Source: a virus
Lineage: Duplodnaviria; Heunggongvirae; Uroviricota; Caudoviricetes
IMG/VR virus record: IMGVR_UViG_2563366861_000002
Direction: 5' to 3' (one strand)
Length of the DNA stretch: 49,107 nt
Within the stretch, counting starts at the first letter, position 1; every line of letters starts with the position of its first letter. The notes under the pieces were generated by a model. The model was not told the origin of the DNA. It saw nothing but the letters and a program-made list of their open reading frames with translations, and did no database searches. A program made the position numbers and the translations under genes. Positions 3,935 through 16,182 of the stretch are shown here, one piece after another.

Positions 3935-4135
3935 TTAAAGACCTGCCGGGATTTCGTTATTATCCTGGTGAATAACTTTATCGACCGGGTAACAGTTACC
4001 GGGAATTTTCTGTTCGGTTGCTGCAGTCACACACTCCTGCATTGTCCTGTGAACACTGACTGCAATATCAACTGGCTCTCCGGAAACAAGAAAAACTGTC
4101 AGAACAAGTGCAAATGCTGTATTCATTGCCAGCAT
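3935..4135 (-). CDS. hypothetical small secreted protein (signal-peptide-like N-terminus)
   Basis: Internal start MLAMNTAFALVLTVFLVSG... of the 81-aa ORF; hydrophobic N-terminus; AT-rich region; no homology recognised. Confidence 0.3.
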   Translation of the reverse strand: MLAMNTAFALVLTVFLVSGEPVDIAVSVHRTMQECVTAATEQKIPGNCYPVDKVIHQDNNEIPAGL

Positions 4136-5459: not shown

Positions 5460-5692
5460 CAGTCAGTGTTTCTGGTTAACCAGCGACGTGCGCCAGCTTC
5501 AGTTTTAAACGTTTTGCTTCTGGTATATGTCATCGCGGTAAACGTGCCGTCCTGGTTGGGAAACACGCCGCATACCAGAGATTCGTTGTTGCCAAGCTCG
5601 ATAGTATCCATGCTGACCTCATTTCCCCTTAACGCCGGGGTAGCGGAACAAAAACCTGCTGCATAGTTATTAAAGTTGAACCCTGCCGTCAT
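5459..5692 (-). CDS. hypothetical protein, first gene downstream of leftward early promoter
   Basis: 77-aa ORF immediately downstream (leftward) of candidate PL/OL; not similar to lambda N. Confidence 0.55.
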   Translation of the reverse strand: MTAGFNFNNYAAGFCSATPALRGNEVSMDTIELGNNESLVCGVFPNQDGTFTAMTYTRSKTFKTEAGARRWLTRNTD

Positions 5693-5789: not shown

Positions 5790-5836
5790 AAAACTATAGG
5801 AAATGCCTAATTACTTGTCAATAGGCTATGCCTAAT
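5790..5836 (-). promoter_or_regulatory. candidate leftward early promoter PL with operator OL
   Basis: Minus strand: -35 TTGACA (plus 5816-5821), 17-bp spacer, -10 TATAGT (plus 5793-5798); overlapped by palindrome TAGGCTATGCCTA (5822-5834) and half-sites GCCTAA. Confidence 0.5.
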
Positions 5837-5929
5837 AATTTGGGCGCAACCTAATAGGTGATGGTTTGTGGGAGAGGTAGTAGGAGTTAACTAACGGGAA
5901 CTAGGAATTTCCCGTCGGACCATATAAGT

Positions 5930-6406
5930 TTAAGTTCCTGTCTTGGTGATGTTCTGGCTTTTCCGTTTTGATTCTTGATTTTTCAGATAGTTAGCTACCT
6001 TCATTTCCATTGCGGCAATGTAGGCGCGAACGTCATGATCAACCCAACTAGGCTCCGTAGCATTTCCAGATAAGATGAAAGCCACAATTGCTCTTTTTTC
6101 ATCAGAGGCGGCTTGATAAAGGCTGTTTATGTCTAAAAGTTCACTTTTTGTATCTGAAGTGGATGGGGTTGGTATGGGGTATTCGTTAAGCCCCCAATGC
6201 TCTGGACCAACCACATCAGAAAAGAAACGCCATAGTTCTGGAAGTTTGTCTTTACTTATCGAACCTTTCTTAATCCAGTCATGGATTGATGGTGGTTGGA
6301 CTTTGAAATGACGTGCGATTTCCGCCTTTGATTTGACGGCTCCTGATGCAATTTTTTTGTTAATGGCCTGCTCTATCGCTCGGCCTAAGTCTTTACCACT
6401 AAGCAT
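5930..6406 (-). CDS. CI-type prophage repressor (RacR-like HTH protein)
   Basis: 158-aa ORF with N-terminal HTH (SKAEIARHFKVQPPSIHDWIKKG); divergent from Cro-like gene; flanked by operator palindromes; resembles my memory of E. coli RacR. Confidence 0.8.
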   Translation of the reverse strand: MLSGKDLGRAIEQAINKKIASGAVKSKAEIARHFKVQPPSIHDWIKKGSISKDKLPELWRFFSDVVGPEHWGLNEYPIPTPSTSDTKSELLDINSLYQAASDEKRAIVAFILSGNATEPSWVDHDVRAYIAAMEMKVANYLKNQESKRKSQNITKTGT

Positions 6407-10144: not shown

Positions 10145-10355
10145 AAACGGTTTGCGGGAAAAGGAGAGTTAAGTAGAATTGCAGCGGGTGCTTGAGGCTA
10201 TCTGTCTCAGGCATGAACACCAAAAGGCAGATAGAGAAAAGCCCCAGTTAACATTACGCGTCCGGCAAGACGCTTAACATTAATCTGAGGCCATATCTAT
10301 GCTCTACACACGTAGGTTAGCCTCTTACGTGCCGAAAGGCAAGGAGAAGCAGGCT

Positions 10356-10511
10356 ATGAAGCAGCAAAAGGCGATGCTAATCGCCCTGATCGTCATCTGT
10401 TTAACCGTCATTGTGACGGCACTGGTAACGAGGAAAGACCTCTGCGAGGTACGAATCCGAACCGGCCAGACGGAGGTCGCTGTCTTCACAGCTTACGAAC
10501 CTGAGGAGTAA
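10356..10511 (+). CDS. Hok/Gef-family type I toxin (small membrane toxin)
   Basis: MKQQKAMLIALIVICLTVIVTALVTRKDLCEVRIRTGQTEVAVFTAYEPEE matches Hok/Gef family signature (TM helix + LTRKxLCE...EVAxFxAYE); in-frame upstream ATG at 10299. Confidence 0.8.
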   Translation: MKQQKAMLIALIVICLTVIVTALVTRKDLCEVRIRTGQTEVAVFTAYEPEE

Positions 10512-10580
10512 GAGACCTGGCGGGGGAGAAATCCCTCGCCACCTCTGATGTGTCAGGCATCCTCAACGCACCCGCACTTA

Positions 10581-10610
10581 ACCCGCTTCGGCGGGTTTTG
10601 TTCTTTTTGT
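10581..10610 (+). terminator. rho-independent terminator
   Basis: CCCGCTTCGGCGGG hairpin followed by TTTTGTTCTTTTT; identical hairpin recurs at 11937-11966. Confidence 0.7.
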
Positions 10611-10755
10611 GAAAAAAATTCCCTTAAAGGAGATTTTTTTAACTAAAAAGGTTTACTTTGCTTTCGTATATGGTAAATTTTAGGAATTAGAATTTAAGCG
10701 CCCATCAGGCTTGCGTTAGGCAAGTCTGCTAAATCAACAAATTGAGGATAAAATC

Positions 10756-11115
10756 ATGGCACTCACTGAATTCGGTAAGGCCGTTAGAAAAGCGAGGATC
10801 GATACTGACAGTACTCTTCTGACTATGTCTCAAGAACTGGGCACTACGCCAGCGTTTCTTAGCGGTTTAGAAACTGGTAGCAAAAAAATACCTCTGAAGT
10901 GGGTTAAGAAGATTGATTCTTACTTCAAGGCCAAAGGTGTAGAAATTGAAGGGTTACAGGAGCTAGCGGCAGTTGCGAATGACTCAGTTCCAGTAAACGG
11001 TTTGTCTCAGCAACAGAAAATGCTTGTAGCGGGATTCGCTAAGTCGCAGTTTACGCCGGAACAGCTAAAGAGTTTTGCAGATTTATTGCAAAAGATTAAT
11101 AACAATGAGGGGTAA
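10756..11115 (+). CDS. XRE-family HTH transcriptional regulator
   Basis: 119-aa ORF; HTH (STLLTMSQELGTTPAFLSGLETG); GAGGA RBS; own promoter-like AT-rich upstream region. Confidence 0.8.
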   Translation: MALTEFGKAVRKARIDTDSTLLTMSQELGTTPAFLSGLETGSKKIPLKWVKKIDSYFKAKGVEIEGLQELAAVANDSVPVNGLSQQQKMLVAGFAKSQFTPEQLKSFADLLQKINNNEG

Positions 11116-11117
11116 TT

Positions 11118-11594
11118 ATGTATCAAATGAGAGGTAACAGGGTGTCACCGATGCAAGAAGAAGAAATAGCCTACAGAGCTATAAACTTCTGTAATGCTAT
11201 TGGTCTTACAGCCTCAAAGCGCAAAAGAAAGCGTTATGATATGTTCTTTGAAAGCCTGTCAATTTATGGGGTTACTCTTGACGTCAGGACCGACAAAGAG
11301 TGGGAGGCTCTGACGTATGATCTAACTATCGGACATTGTGACCCCGCTTCTCTAACAATTACGGTTCCCAATAAAATATATGTGAATGCTTGCCTTGGGG
11401 AAGAGCATGCACTTGCTGTTATCTTCCACGAGCTAGGTCATTTGCTTCTTGGACACAAAGCAGTTTTACACTTTTCAGTTAAAGAACCTACTCGTATTGA
11501 GGATGCAGAATGGCAGGCAGATACATTTGCGGATATCGTACTGGAAACAATTGGCGTGAGAACACAACAGATGTCGTTCGATTTTTATATGTAA
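11118..11594 (+). CDS. ImmA/IrrE-family zinc metallopeptidase
   Basis: 158-aa ORF with HExxH motif (HELGHLLLGH) typical of ImmA/IrrE (COG2856-like) peptidases; immediately downstream of XRE gene. Confidence 0.8.
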   Translation: MYQMRGNRVSPMQEEEIAYRAINFCNAIGLTASKRKRKRYDMFFESLSIYGVTLDVRTDKEWEALTYDLTIGHCDPASLTITVPNKIYVNACLGEEHALAVIFHELGHLLLGHKAVLHFSVKEPTRIEDAEWQADTFADIVLETIGVRTQQMSFDFYM

Positions 11595-11620
11595 AAGCCC
11601 TGCGCTAACAGGGCTTTTAG
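11594..11620 (+). terminator. rho-independent terminator
   Basis: AAAAGCCCTG-cgctaa-CAGGGCTTTT hairpin directly after ImmA stop. Confidence 0.6.
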
Positions 11621-11761
11621 GGACGGAAAGTGCGCTAACACATTCCGTAGTGTATGGAGATAATCCAATCACAACACTTTTTGTAGACAAGCGAAGTGTA
11701 GTGGTTCTCCCAACAAAGTGCAACCTGTGTGGATTCACAGGTGAGCAGGGAAAACGAAATC

Positions 11762-11911
11762 ATGGCAATGGGTACCTGTCGCAAATGTGGCTGTCCATGT
11801 GAGATCATTTTTCGCTACTCTGTGTGTGTAGATGGTGTAATGCGCCACGCGAAAAAAGGGAAGCCTTTCCCGATCCCACTTTGCAGTTGTAGTGGCAAGC
11901 ACGCAGCTTGA
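11762..11911 (+). CDS. hypothetical Cys-rich small protein
   Basis: 49 aa with 7 Cys (CRKCGCPCE...CSCSG), possible metal-binding; ATG within the 60-aa track ORF. Confidence 0.4.
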   Translation: MAMGTCRKCGCPCEIIFRYSVCVDGVMRHAKKGKPFPIPLCSCSGKHAA

Positions 11912-11936
11912 TATTCAGTACTGACAAAACCCGCTT

Positions 11937-11966
11937 CGGCGGGTTTTGTTTTTTCTTGGCATTCAG
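11937..11966 (+). terminator. rho-independent terminator (copy of 10581-10610 hairpin)
   Basis: AAACCCGCTTCGGCGGGTTTTGTTTTTTC. Confidence 0.7.
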
Positions 11967-12026
11967 GTTTACAATTCGCACGTCAGCCTGAACAACTGGC
12001 ACCTGCTGCGCCAGCAGAGAAAGACG

Positions 12027-12305
12027 ATGGCGCACAATACCAAATCACACAATTCTGATAATTCAGCTGTCTTTGCCAGCAGGCACGGGCGGCGTTCCCG
12101 CACATTCAAATCTGATTGGTACCAGCATCCCCCATGTACTGAAGAACAAGCTGAATGGCTAATTCAGTGCTACCGCAGACACGGATACGAGATTAAGAAA
12201 GCCCTCAGCCTCGATTATCGTCACTGGATAATCTCCGTCAGGCTTCCTTACTCTGAACGCCCACCGCGTCCGTCCCGCACATTCCAGCAACGCATCTGGA
12301 GGTAA
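12027..12305 (+). CDS. hypothetical protein
   Basis: Internal ATG (MAHNTKSH...) of 119-aa ORF; 92 aa; basic. Confidence 0.5.
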   Translation: MAHNTKSHNSDNSAVFASRHGRRSRTFKSDWYQHPPCTEEQAEWLIQCYRRHGYEIKKALSLDYRHWIISVRLPYSERPPRPSRTFQQRIWR

Positions 12306-12306
12306 C

Positions 12307-13353
12307 GTGCGGGTATTACTTCGACCTGTTCTGGTACCGGAACTCGGGCTGGTGATCGTTAAGCCGGGCCGTGAATCCATGCCGGTATTCCACAATACCC
12401 GGGTACTGGTGGAGCCGGAACCGAAAAGCATGCGTAATCTGTCGTCCGGGGTCGTTCCTGCCGTTCGCCAGCCGCTGGCGGAGGATAAATCATTACTGCC
12501 ATTTTTCAGCGACGAACGAGTGATTCGTGCTGCTGGTGGCGCTGGCGCATTGTCTGACTGGTTACTGCGCCATGTTAAATCCTGCCAGTGGCCACACGGC
12601 GATTATCACCACAGTGAAACCGTCATTCACCGTTATGGTACCGGCGCAATGGTGTTGTGCTGGCACTGCGACAACCAGCTGCGCGACCAGACCTCCGAAT
12701 CACTCGGGCAACTTGCTCACCAAAACCTGTCTGCATGGATGATTGACGTCATACGCCATGCAATGAATGGCTCGCAGGAACGGGAATTATCGCTGGCTGA
12801 ATTATCCTGGTGGGCGGTCCGCAATCAGGTGGCGGACGCGCTACCGGAAGCGGTATTACGTCGTTCGCTGGGGTTGCGTGCGGAAAAAATCCGCTCAATG
12901 TACCGTGAAAGCGACATCGTACCGGGAGAGCAGACCGCCACCAGCATACTGAAGCAGCGCACAAAAAATCTTGCGCCGCTGCCTCACGCCCACCAGCAAA
13001 ACCCGCCACAGGAAGAGACGGTGGTCAGCATTGCCGTTGATCCTGAGTCTCCGGAATCTTTCATGAAACGACCTAAACGTCGCCGCTGGGTTAACGAGAA
13101 ATACACACGCTGGGTGAAGACACAGCCGTGTGCGTGTTGTGGTAAGCCAGCCGACGATCCCCATCACCTGATTGGTCATGGTCAGGGCGGAATGGGGACA
13201 AAATCTCACGATATTTTCACGCTACCGCTGTGTCGGGAGCATCACAACGAGCTTCATGCGGATCCTCTGGCGTTCGAAGAAAAGCATGGTTCTCAGGTTG
13301 ATTTAATTTTTCGTTTTCTTGATCACGCCTTTGCAACTGGCGTGCTTGGGTAA
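12307..13353 (+). CDS. DUF968-like protein with C-terminal Cys/His (HNH-like) motif
   Basis: 348-aa ORF; C-terminal CACCGK...HHLIGHG...CREHHNELH; position upstream of rusA typical of lambdoid prophages. Confidence 0.7.
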   Translation: MRVLLRPVLVPELGLVIVKPGRESMPVFHNTRVLVEPEPKSMRNLSSGVVPAVRQPLAEDKSLLPFFSDERVIRAAGGAGALSDWLLRHVKSCQWPHGDYHHSETVIHRYGTGAMVLCWHCDNQLRDQTSESLGQLAHQNLSAWMIDVIRHAMNGSQERELSLAELSWWAVRNQVADALPEAVLRRSLGLRAEKIRSMYRESDIVPGEQTATSILKQRTKNLAPLPHAHQQNPPQEETVVSIAVDPESPESFMKRPKRRRWVNEKYTRWVKTQPCACCGKPADDPHHLIGHGQGGMGTKSHDIFTLPLCREHHNELHADPLAFEEKHGSQVDLIFRFLDHAFATGVLG

Positions 13354-15132: not shown

Positions 15133-16182
15133 ATGCTTAATACTGTAAAAATATCCAGTTGTGAGTTAATCAACGCCGACTGCCTGGAATTTATCCGGTC
15201 GTTACCCGAAAATTCTGTTGACCTGATAGTCACGGACCCGCCGTACTTTAAAGTGAAGCCTGAGGGCTGGGATAACCAGTGGAAGGGCGACGATGATTAC
15301 CTGAAGTGGCTGGACCAGTGTCTGGCGCAGTTCTGGCGGGTGCTGAAACCTGCCGGAAGTCTTTACCTGTTCTGTGGTCATCGCCTGGCATCTGATATCG
15401 AAATCATGATGCGTGAACGCTTCAGTGTGCTGAACCATATTATCTGGGCGAAGCCGTCCGGACGCTGGAACGGATGCAACAAGGAAAGCCTGCGGGCGTA
15501 TTTCCCCGCCACAGAGCGCATTCTGCTCGCGGAACATTATCAGGGGCCGTATCGTCCGAAAGATGCCGGGTATGCGGCGAAGGGCAGTGCACTGAAACAG
15601 CATGTGATGGCCCCGCTGATTTCTTACTTTCGTGATGCGCGCGCGGCCCTGGGGATAACGGCAAAACAGATTGCAGATGCCACAGGAAAGAAAAACATGG
15701 TGTCGCACTGGTTCAGTGCCAGTCAGTGGCAGCTACCGAACGAAAGCGATTATCTGAAATTACAGTCGCTGTTTGCCCGGGTGGCAGAAGAGAAACATCA
15801 GCGCGGTGAACTGGAAAAGCCCCACCACCAGCTGGTGGATACGTATACGTCACTGAACCGGCAGTATGTGGAGCTGCAGAGTGAATATAAGCATCTGCGG
15901 CGGTATTTTGGTGTGACGGCGCAGGTGCCGTACACGGATGTGTGGACACATAAACCGGTGCAGTTCTATCCCGGGAAACATCCGTGCGAAAAACCGGCAG
16001 AAATGCTGCAGCAGATAATCAGCGCAAGCAGTCGTCCGGGTGACCTGGTTGCAGATTTTTTTATGGGCTCAGGTTCAACGGTAAAAGCGGCACTGGCGCT
16101 CGGGCGTCGTGCGATTGGCGTTGAGCTGGAGACCGGACGTTTTGAGCAGACAGTCAGGGAAGTTCAGGATTTAATCGTTTGA
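15133..16182 (+). CDS. orphan DNA methyltransferase (beta-class amino-MTase, DPPY motif)
   Basis: 349-aa ORF; motif IV VTDPPYF near N-terminus and motif I FFMGSGST near C-terminus; no adjacent restriction endonuclease. Confidence 0.85.
   Translation: MLNTVKISSCELINADCLEFIRSLPENSVDLIVTDPPYFKVKPEGWDNQWKGDDDYLKWLDQCLAQFWRVLKPAGSLYLFCGHRLASDIEIMMRERFSVLNHIIWAKPSGRWNGCNKESLRAYFPATERILLAEHYQGPYRPKDAGYAAKGSALKQHVMAPLISYFRDARAALGITAKQIADATGKKNMVSHWFSASQWQLPNESDYLKLQSLFARVAEEKHQRGELEKPHHQLVDTYTSLNRQYVELQSEYKHLRRYFGVTAQVPYTDVWTHKPVQFYPGKHPCEKPAEMLQQIISASSRPGDLVADFFMGSGSTVKAALALGRRAIGVELETGRFEQTVREVQDLIV

Follow-up and report, generated by a model that had tools for sequence, protein, structure and literature searches.

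Pairs of an XRE-family repressor and an M78 peptidase are among the commonest two-gene modules of phages and mobile elements, and most of them have no known output (Makarova et al.). ImmA cleaves ImmR, IrrE cleaves DdrO, and CapP cleaves CapH, the latter two reactions being stimulated by ssDNA (PMC13228613, PMC10904395, PMC2701414). CapP is a 288-residue protein composed of a peptidase (residues 1–141), an HTH domain (142–182), and a GAF domain (182–288), and in both IrrE and CapP the HTH and GAF domains form an ssDNA-binding groove (PMC13228613). Here, we analyze an E. coli prophage cassette that offers this subfamily a concrete candidate output, a small protein, together with a regulatory RNA, neither of which is matched in Pfam, NCBIfam, PHROGs, PADLOC, or Rfam. 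Our literature search found no described three-gene system of XRE, M78, and small-protein genes and no such RNA motif.

The cassette lies in the window, i.e., the whole 49,107-nucleotide stretch of IMG/VR record IMGVR_UViG_2563366861_000002 (Caudoviricetes), where it forms a discrete, AT-richer insertion of 1348 bp (~1.35 kb) at positions 10580–11957 between hok and rem. Three ORFs and one structured RNA make up its entire content, with the following features:

10580–10610, + strand: left copy of the terminator hairpin (AACCCGCTTCGGCGGGTT plus T-run), which is the hok terminator and the left insertion border
10638–10656, no strand assigned: palindromic operator (TTTAACTAAAAAGGTTTAC), overlapping the −35 element; presumed XRE binding site
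10652–10679, + strand: promoter as read from the sequence, with −35 TTTACT (10652–10657), a 16-nt spacer, and extended −10 TGgTAAATT (10671–10679)
10756–11115, + strand: gene for the XRE-fold HTH repressor (119 aa; N-terminal five-helix HTH, C-terminal helical part)
11118–11594, + strand: gene for a short single-domain Peptidase_M78 of the ImmA type (158 aa; motif FHELGHLLLGHK...EDAEWQADxFA)
11592–11761, + strand: structured leader RNA comprising P1–P4, with covariation
11592–11619, + strand: P1, loop CGCTAA (11603–11608)
11624–11647, + strand: P2, loop CGCTAA (11633–11638)
11656–11710, + strand: P3, base GGAGA:UCUCC, apex TAGACA (11684–11689)
11725–11740, + strand: P4, a hairpin of the leader
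11747–11752, + strand: weak SD of the small ORF in the window, inside the leader
11762–11911, + strand: gene for the small basic protein (49 aa from ATG; pI 9.2; CxxC...CxC; predicted all-beta)
11923–11957, + strand: right terminator hairpin (stem 11923–11950), which is the cassette's own terminator and the right insertion border

A reading made earlier from the sequence alone (the sequence-only reading) had described this segment as a moron-like AT-rich module acquired between duplicated terminators, and both parts of that description hold. The module has its own promoter and terminator, its GC content is 40–44% compared with 50–57% in the flanks, and the flanking genes are adjacent in related phages. 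The 49-kb window contains the hairpin sequence CCCGCTTCGGCGGG plus T-run at precisely two places, 10582 and 11930, whereas shuffles give 0.29 matches with up to two mismatches allowed. Both copies are parts of a 27-nt direct repeat, the arms of which (10580–10606 and 11928–11954) are identical at 26 of 27 positions and lie 1348 nt apart. Related phages, for example vB_EcoS-640R1, have an empty site with a single hairpin; cassette copies that are 85% identical and set in unrelated flanks stop at the same hairpins, and the same hairpin is found on both sides of the cassette in four unrelated contexts. The insertion borders are established, with one correction: the right hairpin had been placed at 11937–11966, which is ~9–14 nt too far to the right. 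A link to hok or to rusA–Q, also envisaged in that reading, was not found, and members of the cassette family occupy widely differing positions in Mu-like, F116-like, and other phages. Both the sok RNA and Hok are intact beside the cassette. The empty site and the other contexts of the cassette led us to reject a functional link to hok/sok in favor of mere adjacency; judged from these contexts, hok/sok is simply the neighbor whose terminator served as the insertion point.

By sequence comparison, the cassette belongs to a three-gene system that is widespread and borne mostly by phages. An XRE gene lies directly upstream of the peptidase gene in 78 of 80 genome loci, and an iterated HMM search places a small ORF ~160–230 nt downstream of it in at least 118 of 162 loci. 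All three genes are under strong purifying selection, with dN/dS values of 0.03 for the XRE gene (versus locus L095), 0.04 for the peptidase gene, and 0.01 for the small ORF, where 16 of the 17 differences from L095 fall at third codon positions. Gene linkage and coding selection are established.

The assignment of the first protein to the XRE type is borne out by its fold. Its own scores against Pfam HTH_3 and HTH_31 (15.9 and 13.5 bits; E 0.017 and 0.079) are below the cut-offs of 27 and 23; many relatives that are 60–70% identical to it carry precomputed PF01381 or PF13560, and the PADLOC model HTH_VI matches it at 1e-6. The AF2 model, with pLDDT >90 over residues 1–70, adopts the five-helix lambda-repressor-like fold, and Foldseek matches it with a probability of ~1.0 to the Phi106 repressor, SinR, ClgR, the 434 repressor, and DdrO. 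The protein is better conserved than the peptidase and contains a conserved motif, MLVAGFAKS (residues 89–97), in its C-terminal part.

The promoter positions are kept in a Klebsiella phage copy and in other loci. The palindrome follows the family consensus TTyAACC-N5-GGTTgAA, overlapping the −35 element; of 97 unique upstream regions, 78 (80%) score 10 or more out of 14, as opposed to 45 of 749 control windows (6%). The existence of the operator is established, and because this conserved palindrome overlaps the cassette's own −35 element, the XRE repressor, which presumably binds it, most probably controls its own operon. The pair had previously been described as a second, independent switch with an unknown target; the conserved operator supplies a probable target. 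No second operator was found before the small ORF, and scans of the spacer between the peptidase gene and the small ORF found no consistent sigma-70 promoter. A TTGACA-like P3 apex and the loop words were rejected as an internal sigma-70 promoter, with no −10 element at a usable distance and none conserved.

The peptidase gene starts after a 2-nt gap from the XRE stop codon, with GAGGGG as SD before its ATG, and appears to be translationally coupled to the XRE gene. As first proposed, this HExxH protein belongs to the ImmA/IrrE (M78) family: it passes the Pfam gathering score for PF06114 Peptidase_M78 (24.6 bits versus 22; E 2.4e-5), matches the phrog_87 metallo-protease at 7e-17, and has homologues named ImmA/IrrE family metallo-endopeptidase at NCBI. 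In 26 diverse homologues, H104, E105, H108, and E131-W-Q-A-D-x-F are invariant, and E131 aligns with the glutamate of ExQADLFA in CapP, the solved structure that the peptidase matches best, with an alignment covering the catalytic motif at a weak E of 0.03. At 147–190 residues, the peptidase and its homologues have no extra domain, and since they lack the ssDNA-binding HTH and GAF domains of IrrE and CapP, the trigger cannot be transferred from those proteins.

The 49-residue protein with seven cysteines (positions 6, 9, 11, 13, 22, 41, and 43) is present as reported. It is a conserved third component rather than an incidental ORF, and the cysteines are lineage-specific, the family including Cys-less forms. 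Its members span 35–60 residues, with a pI of 9–11 and a GRAVY of +0.14 in the window and −0.4 to −0.7 in five relatives. The structure model was built on three sequences. Searches for a profile or fold match in Pfam, NCBIfam, PHROG, and PDB returned none, the sole match being an uncharacterized close homologue in BFVD; no PADLOC model matches the protein, and no relative of known function was detectable. A search of 5.8 billion proteins gave only two clusters, because the small ORF is rarely called, and it is unannotated in most RefSeq E. coli copies among the matches listed.

Upstream of this ORF lies a covariation-supported leader RNA, which had been missed. The leader has a z-score of −4.2, 96% of cells are paired, and 24 of 33 pairs are changed on both sides (0 of 500 shuffles). 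Its covariance model yields 57 hits, each of them on the + strand and immediately following the stop codon of the peptidase gene, while Rfam gives no match inside 11595–11761 even at E up to 5. We rejected a coding role for this spacer, as the ORFs overlapping 11595–11761 are not conserved in frame and show a 1-nt indel relative to Klebsiella; the ‘hypothetical protein’ of the Klebsiella record over the spacer looks like a mis-call. The helices P1, P2, P4, and the middle of P3 are established. In addition, a CUCC element can pair either with the upstream GGAG or with the ribosome-binding site of the small ORF; the median energy gap between these states is 0.6 kcal/mol, and the anti-SD:SD pairing is present in the MFE structure of 24 of 49 unique leaders. 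Neither the basal P3 helix GGAG:CUCC nor the anti-SD:SD helix shows covariation, their columns being invariant or changed on one side, so the putative SD switch is a prediction from folding energies. P1 could end most transcripts, and expression of the small ORF would then require an unrecognized promoter. No antisense RNA gene was found.

We therefore propose, at roughly even odds, that the xre gene, the M78 peptidase gene, the leader, and the small ORF form a self-contained, horizontally moving operon that acts as a switch, with derepression triggered by the protease as in ImmR/ImmA and CapH/CapP and with a riboregulated small protein as output. Cassettes frequently adjoin DinI, SRAP/YedK, and UmuDC cargo, which counts in favor of such a switch. 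An XRE dimer on the palindrome over the −35 element would keep the whole operon low. On a signal, which by analogy may be DNA damage or phage-replication stress, the co-encoded ImmA-type metallopeptidase would cut the XRE protein, probably in its conserved C-terminal part. Increased transcription would then pass P1, a weak hairpin, and continue into the leader, provided that the genes are co-transcribed, and the leader would gate translation: UCUCC paired with the upstream GGAG would leave the ribosome site free, and UCUCC paired with the SD of the ORF would block it. The output would be the small basic beta-protein, an effector that most likely inhibits the host or a phage, has to be kept off, and acts in a defensive or TA-like manner. 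Both the damage-responsiveness and the TA-like behavior suggested for the cassette are arguments from analogy. If the small protein is indeed a host-directed inhibitor or defense effector, the cassette would constitute a compact and portable switch for killing or arrest, gated by damage or infection.

The same pair could alternatively be a classical two-gene type II TA module, in which the M78 peptidase is a toxin that cuts a host protein, the XRE protein is the antitoxin and autorepressor, and the neighboring RNA and small ORF do not belong to the module. Xre-COG2856 pairs have been predicted as TA modules (PMC2701414), one source lists ‘toxin’ for a Providencia homologue and ‘toxin-antitoxin system’ for its partner, and the peptidase shows a faint likeness to Lit (NCBIfam E 0.13), with precomputed PF10463 Peptidase_U49 in some homologues; a mobile, patchy distribution fits as well. 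We nevertheless consider this unlikely, because all characterized members (ImmA, IrrE, and CapP) cut their own XRE partner and not a host target (PMC13228613), because the small ORF and leader accompany the XRE/peptidase pair across phyla at a fixed distance, as would not be expected of an unrelated neighbor, and because no toxicity reports for this subfamily were found in the literature examined (e.g., PMC10538038).

One observation, the identity of the two loops of P1 and P2, is left unaccounted for by the proposed derepression switch. In 41 unique loci, P1 and P2 share one loop sequence, although the loop takes at least 12 different sequences overall, and the two loops change together between near-identical cassettes whose three proteins are 88–96% identical; co-evolution of the loops with the three proteins was rejected. 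This rule is an unusual evolutionary signature and may hint at RNA recognition by a new mechanism. A bolder and, in our judgment, improbable reading is that of an undescribed, widespread, phage-borne three-component system, in which a riboregulator of a new class would use the co-evolving identical loops as the address for a trans-acting nucleic acid (a tRNA anticodon loop, RNA of an invading phage, or a co-resident cassette's leader) that decides effector synthesis after the XRE/M78 pair has fired. Still somewhat less credible is the suggestion that the RNA is itself the main product, trans-acting or a decoy, with twin loops that pair with or mimic another nucleic acid (a tRNA anticodon loop, phage RNA, or host RNA) and with the small ORF as secondary. 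The joint change of the loops, the strong covariation, and the 7-nt loops of the form CU-NNN-AA in one clade would all suit an RNA product. However, most loops measure 6 nt rather than 7, there is discordance in five or six loop types, and the small ORF is both very strongly purified by selection and more widespread than this particular RNA architecture. Moreover, exact searches for the complement of the twin loops within 3 kb, in the whole window, and in each region separately with permutations as control gave nothing above chance; neither the cassette nor the window yielded a complementary partner.

The distribution of the cassette bears on a further alternative, in which the small protein is an accessory of prophage induction, namely an antirepressor that inactivates a non-cleavable repressor of the RacR type after the XRE/M78 pair has fired, coupling induction to damage. 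The resident prophage does have a 158-residue, RacR-sized repressor with no detectable S24 autocleavage domain beside YdaS/YdaT, and other temperate phages are known to encode small antirepressors under LexA control. ImmR/ImmA, furthermore, governs the mobilization of ICEBs1 and phages (PMC13228613, PMC2701414). This explanation seems very unlikely to us, since the cassette lies outside the immunity region and both the repressors and the cassette positions are unrelated among the lambdoid, Mu-like, and F116-like phages that harbor its family; the cassette is present in ~1% of complete E. coli genomes, O55:H7 RM12579 being one carrier strain, as well as in many other Proteobacteria, and ~99% of complete E. 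coli genomes are without it although the hok–rem flanks match in most.

Least probable of all is that the small ORF is an SOS gene controlled by LexA independently of the XRE protein and the peptidase, with the P4 palindrome as LexA box: P4 fits CTGT-N8-ACAG, scores 12.3 bits in the window and 10–18 in relatives against a shuffled-window maximum of 7.3 (with a matrix from known LexA boxes, and as a lead only), and the cassettes often adjoin SOS-related cargo (DinI, SRAP/YedK, and UmuDC), but these borderline scores are at or below those of the weakest genuine boxes (12.9–27 bits), the match is confined to one lineage, Rheinheimera and Pantoea members retaining the hairpin without CTGT..ACAG, and P4 contains G-U pairs and has no recognizable promoter nearby, and we rejected it as a LexA box.

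The proposed derepression switch can be compared with several described systems. Among known defense systems, PADLOC gives weak motif-level hits only (capH, capP, and RmrA), the architecture of PD-lambda-2 (Vassallo et al.) differs from that of the cassette, and no recognized defense operon lies next to the XRE/M78 pair in the insertion, which holds only the three ORFs and the RNA. CapH/CapP, which regulates CBASS and other immune operons, and DdrO/IrrE embody the principle that we propose here, an XRE repressor cut by an M78 peptidase with ensuing derepression, although for the cassette the cleavage is presumed. The PADLOC capH and capP models give weak hits to the cassette proteins. CapP and IrrE carry the HTH and GAF ssDNA groove (PMC13228613), whereas the cassette peptidase is without both domains; and while CapH/CapP adjoin a large immune operon, the sole downstream cargo of the cassette is a protein of 35–60 residues behind an RNA leader.

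The Rosmer toxin-antitoxin and defense systems, in which RmrT is paired with the XRE-M78 fusion RmrA (e.g., RipAB of S. pneumoniae), likewise couple an XRE and M78 unit to one small or variable effector gene. In Rosmer, however, RmrA is a single fusion protein with an upstream toxin, whereas the cassette has separate HTH and peptidase ORFs 2 nt apart, no upstream ORF belonging to the unit, and its candidate effector downstream behind the RNA; the PADLOC RmrA hits cover only the HExxH region and M78 motif (E 1e-3). Phage morons, i.e., promoter-gene-terminator units between conserved phage genes, share with the cassette the possession of their own promoter and terminator, the lower GC content, and flanking genes that are adjacent in relatives, but they comprise one gene, compared with three genes and an RNA between two copies of the same hairpin.

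Structured leaders that mask ribosome-binding sites combine a long leader, an anti-SD element with mutually exclusive pairings, and a very small downstream ORF. The cassette differs from these in that its product is hydrophilic and basic and its leader lies inside a longer operon that also codes for other proteins. The ImmR/ImmA pair, known from ICEBs1 and from Bacillus phages, shares with the cassette the operon order of repressor and then protease, a short single-domain protease (ImmA has ~170 residues, compared with 158 for the cassette peptidase), a seemingly autorepressed promoter, and a place on a mobile element. Sequence likeness to ImmR/ImmA is limited to the M78 motif, and ImmR governs the excision and transfer genes of its element, whereas the cassette has an operator only at its own promoter, includes a structured leader and a small protein in addition, and is an accessory insertion outside the immunity region.

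The cassette between hok and rem is best explained, at what we judge to be about an even chance, as an autorepressed switch like ImmR/ImmA whose output is a small protein under riboregulation. It lies directly downstream of an intact toxin–antitoxin locus:

10200-10361 and 10299-10511: hok/sok type I toxin–antitoxin locus, intact (Rfam sok, 87 bits; Pfam HOK_GEF, 2.9e-23)
10638-10656: window copy of an operator-like palindrome, overlapping the -35
10756-11115: xre
11118-11594: peptidase gene
11592-11761, + strand: leader RNA with helices P1–P4
11603-11608 and 11633-11638: twin loop word CGCTAA of P1 and P2 (within the 10-mers 11601-11610 and 11631-11640)
11723-11742: P4 hairpin, ACCTGTGTGGATTCACAGGT, matching the LexA-box core CTGT-N8-ACAG
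11762-11911, + strand: small ORF, encoding a 49-residue Cys-rich protein

The sequence-only reading had placed three ORFs, a promoter-bearing AT-rich stretch and two hairpins here, and these positions are borne out, with the right hairpin shifted by about 10 nt. Exactly two copies of CCCGCTTCGGCGGG occur in the 49-kb window, each within a 27-nt direct repeat (26 of 27 positions identical, spacing 1348 nt), and the GC content is 40–44% between the repeats versus 50–57% outside. Because hok, a single hairpin copy and rem are directly adjacent in many lambdoid phages (e.g., vB_EcoS-640R1), the window carries a clean 1348-bp insertion, and the insertion point is the hok/sok terminator. The insertion sits in a lambdoid prophage of Rac-like type, which has a RacR-size repressor together with YdaS and YdaT; around the cassette, its genes run hok/sok, cassette, rem, DUF968, RusA, Q. 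Of 5426 complete E. coli genomes, 47–48 carry the full cassette, in every case on the chromosome.

Loci encoding relatives of the peptidase qualified in 115 genome stretches and 170 viral contigs, of which 80 genome and 80 viral loci were fetched. Four of them (L094–L097) hold DNA copies ~85% identical to the window cassette in unrelated flanks, with homology starting at ~10633 (10574 for L096) and ending at ~11947–11956. Three of these copies, in L094, L095 and L096, have the same terminator at their end and also a CCCGCT(T/C)(C/A)GGCGGG hairpin in front. A CCCGCTTCGGCGGG-type hairpin is seen on both sides in four unrelated contexts (~5460–5520 and 6800–6840 in L094–L096; 10580–10610 and 11923–11957 in the window), the left copy following CACTTA or a slight variant of it; the hairpin may belong to the mobile unit or be the target that the unit prefers. 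The same hok–rem site, with flanks homologous to window positions 10170–12800, holds a different variant in L122–L124 and L154 (53% peptidase identity to the window for L122–L124), and the site looks like a hot spot for swapping cassette alleles. The shared border hairpins and the variant at hok–rem both support the earlier proposal of recombination at the hairpin.

Elsewhere, the cassette lies near the integrase in Pseudomonas phage H66 (whose annotation names the small ORF H66_0067); in a Mu-like phage of Pasteurella it follows mor; and in a Mu-like prophage of Neisseria meningitidis it lies between the tail sheath and tape-measure genes, after an unassigned 124-aa ORF. Homologues recur at enterobacterial prophage ends (L169–L172, L165, L001) beside DinI, SRAP/YedK and UmuDC, neighbours whose DNA-damage character is suggestive only. 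These varied positions argue for an autonomous accessory unit and against a role bound to hok, rusA–Q or one phage repressor type. The observation made in the sequence-only reading is borne out, and its interpretation holds in part.

The HExxH protein, previously assigned to the ImmA/IrrE family, passes the Pfam threshold for Peptidase_M78. Its subfamily is short and single-domain (147–190 aa), has the invariant signature FHELGHLLLGHK...EDAEWQADxFA, and at 50% identity amounts to 872 clusters for E up to 1e-3 and 37 at 1e-30. In addition to HExxH and E131, Cys74 (in GHCDP) is nearly invariant, and His113 and His118, which lie between the zinc ligands, are invariant; by analogy with the cysteine switch loop of CapP, these three residues might form an autoinhibitory switch. 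The XRE protein falls below the Pfam threshold; its predicted model has a five-helix XRE domain, resembling SinR, DdrO, ClgR and phage repressors, followed by a helical tail of low confidence. Within this C-terminal part, residues 89–97 (MLVAGFAKS) are strongly conserved and are a candidate site of recognition or cleavage by the peptidase. An XRE homologue is encoded immediately upstream of the peptidase in 78 of 80 genome loci, and is the more conserved of the two (e.g., 60% vs 41% in Burkholderiales); dN/dS relative to L095 is 0.03 for xre and 0.04 for the peptidase. The palindrome TTyAACC-N5-GGTTgAA, upstream of XRE and overlapping the -35, was found in 78 of 97 unique regions versus 45 of 749 control windows. 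Compared with an autorepressed switch, a two-gene toxin–antitoxin system with the peptidase as toxin is less likely, and so is an antirepressor module.

In nearly all close loci and many distant ones, an ORF for 35–60 residues starts 160–230 nt past the peptidase stop. An iterated HMM finds the family in 118 of 162 loci, and joins the Cys-rich enteric/Vibrio form to Cys-less forms from Burkholderiales, Pseudomonas, Pasteurellaceae, Neisseria and even Clostridia and CPR bacteria. Since both forms share a basic, β-hairpin-rich core (h-x-h-F/Y-R-x-x-I-T-K-x-G-K-x-I-Y...G-K-x-F-x-I), CxxC...CxC is a lineage-specific clip, presumably for zinc. Relative to L095, dN/dS is 0.01, with 16 of 17 differences at third codon positions. 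The ORF is unannotated in most listed RefSeq E. coli copies, and only two clusters of the protein occur among 5.8 billion proteins. In Klebsiella phage ST13-OXA48phi12.4 (L001), the deposited "hypothetical protein" (5836-6024) has been called over the leader, which is non-coding, and the true small ORF (6005-6154) lacks annotation.

Ten enteric-type spacers analysed with RNAalifold yielded four helices, and the window leader folds with z = -4.2. Searching with a covariance model recovered 57 full-length copies; every one lies on the + strand and begins at the stop codon of the peptidase gene. In their alignment, whose fitting to the model favours the structure, 96.1% of cells are paired, versus 35–48% with partners slid, and 24 of 33 pairs show both-side changes; none of 500 shuffles reached the observed values. 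The G-U content fits the + strand (e.g., G95-U152 in 27 rows), and an Rfam search of the region returned no family. At the base of P3, an upstream GGAG(R) pairs with (Y)CUCC, a helix beyond covariation support because its columns hardly vary. The same CUCC is also complementary to the Shine-Dalgarno (SD) sequence of the small ORF: among the minimum free energy structures of 49 unique leaders, 24 contain the anti-SD:SD helix and 12 the P3 base, and forcing either state has a similar cost (median difference 0.6 kcal/mol). From this folding, we infer that the leader may act as a bistable translational gate. The leaders of more distant lineages differ but are of similar length; they likewise open with a hairpin directly against the stop codon, and contain a (G)UUCUCC-like element. 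The P3 apex (11684-11689) carries a TTGACA-like word, always in + orientation (TAGACA in the window; TTGACA, TTGACG or TTGGCG in relatives), with no -10 at a usable distance.

The P1 and P2 loops of one locus carry an identical word, with five or six discordant loop types. At least 12 words occur across loci: CGCTAA, CTAGGA(A), TTGACG, TTGGCA, CGTCAA, CTTCGAA, CTGCAAA, GAGAA, TTTGCGG, TTTACGG, CGCCAA and CCGCAAA. Loosely, they form one family, with the pattern YKNCAA(A) or the reverse complement of that pattern. Both loops change or flip together between cassettes in which all three proteins are 88–96% identical: CTAGGA in L019 against CTTCGAA in L120, and CGTCAA in L013 against its reverse complement, TTGACG, in L018. 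A complementary partner, in cis or across the window, was not found beyond chance. In Providencia rustigianii (L003, 6482-7013), leader and small ORF are tandemly duplicated (two covariance-model matches, two small ORFs), with CGCTAA in all four hairpin loops. A function centred on the RNA itself is less likely than riboregulation of the small protein. LexA control through the P4 palindrome, which scores 12.3 bits (relatives 10–18) with a matrix built from LexA boxes, is also less likely; some lineages retain the hairpin without the motif. With the same matrix, the window's strongest LexA-box-like site is TACTGTAAAAATATCCAGTT (15141-15160, 23.7 bits); a DNA methylase gene located downstream of Q (15133-16182, PF01555) carries it at its 5′ end. 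Positions 4115-4134 hold a weaker site.

Nothing in the libraries and literature searched matches the conserved small protein, the leader RNA or the twin-loop rule, and no description came up there of a cassette with these three parts, or of its leader or small protein. The peptidase–repressor pair is of a known kind and already annotated. The literature contains the general prediction on Xre–COG2856 pairs (PMC2701414) and work on Rosmer/RipAB (PMC12795458), PD-lambda-2 (PMC9519451) and the mechanisms of CapH/CapP and IrrE (PMC13228613, PMC10904395). CapP is the best relative with a solved structure, aligning over the catalytic motif with a weak E of 0.03. CapP and IrrE bind ssDNA via HTH and GAF domains; the peptidase described here has neither.
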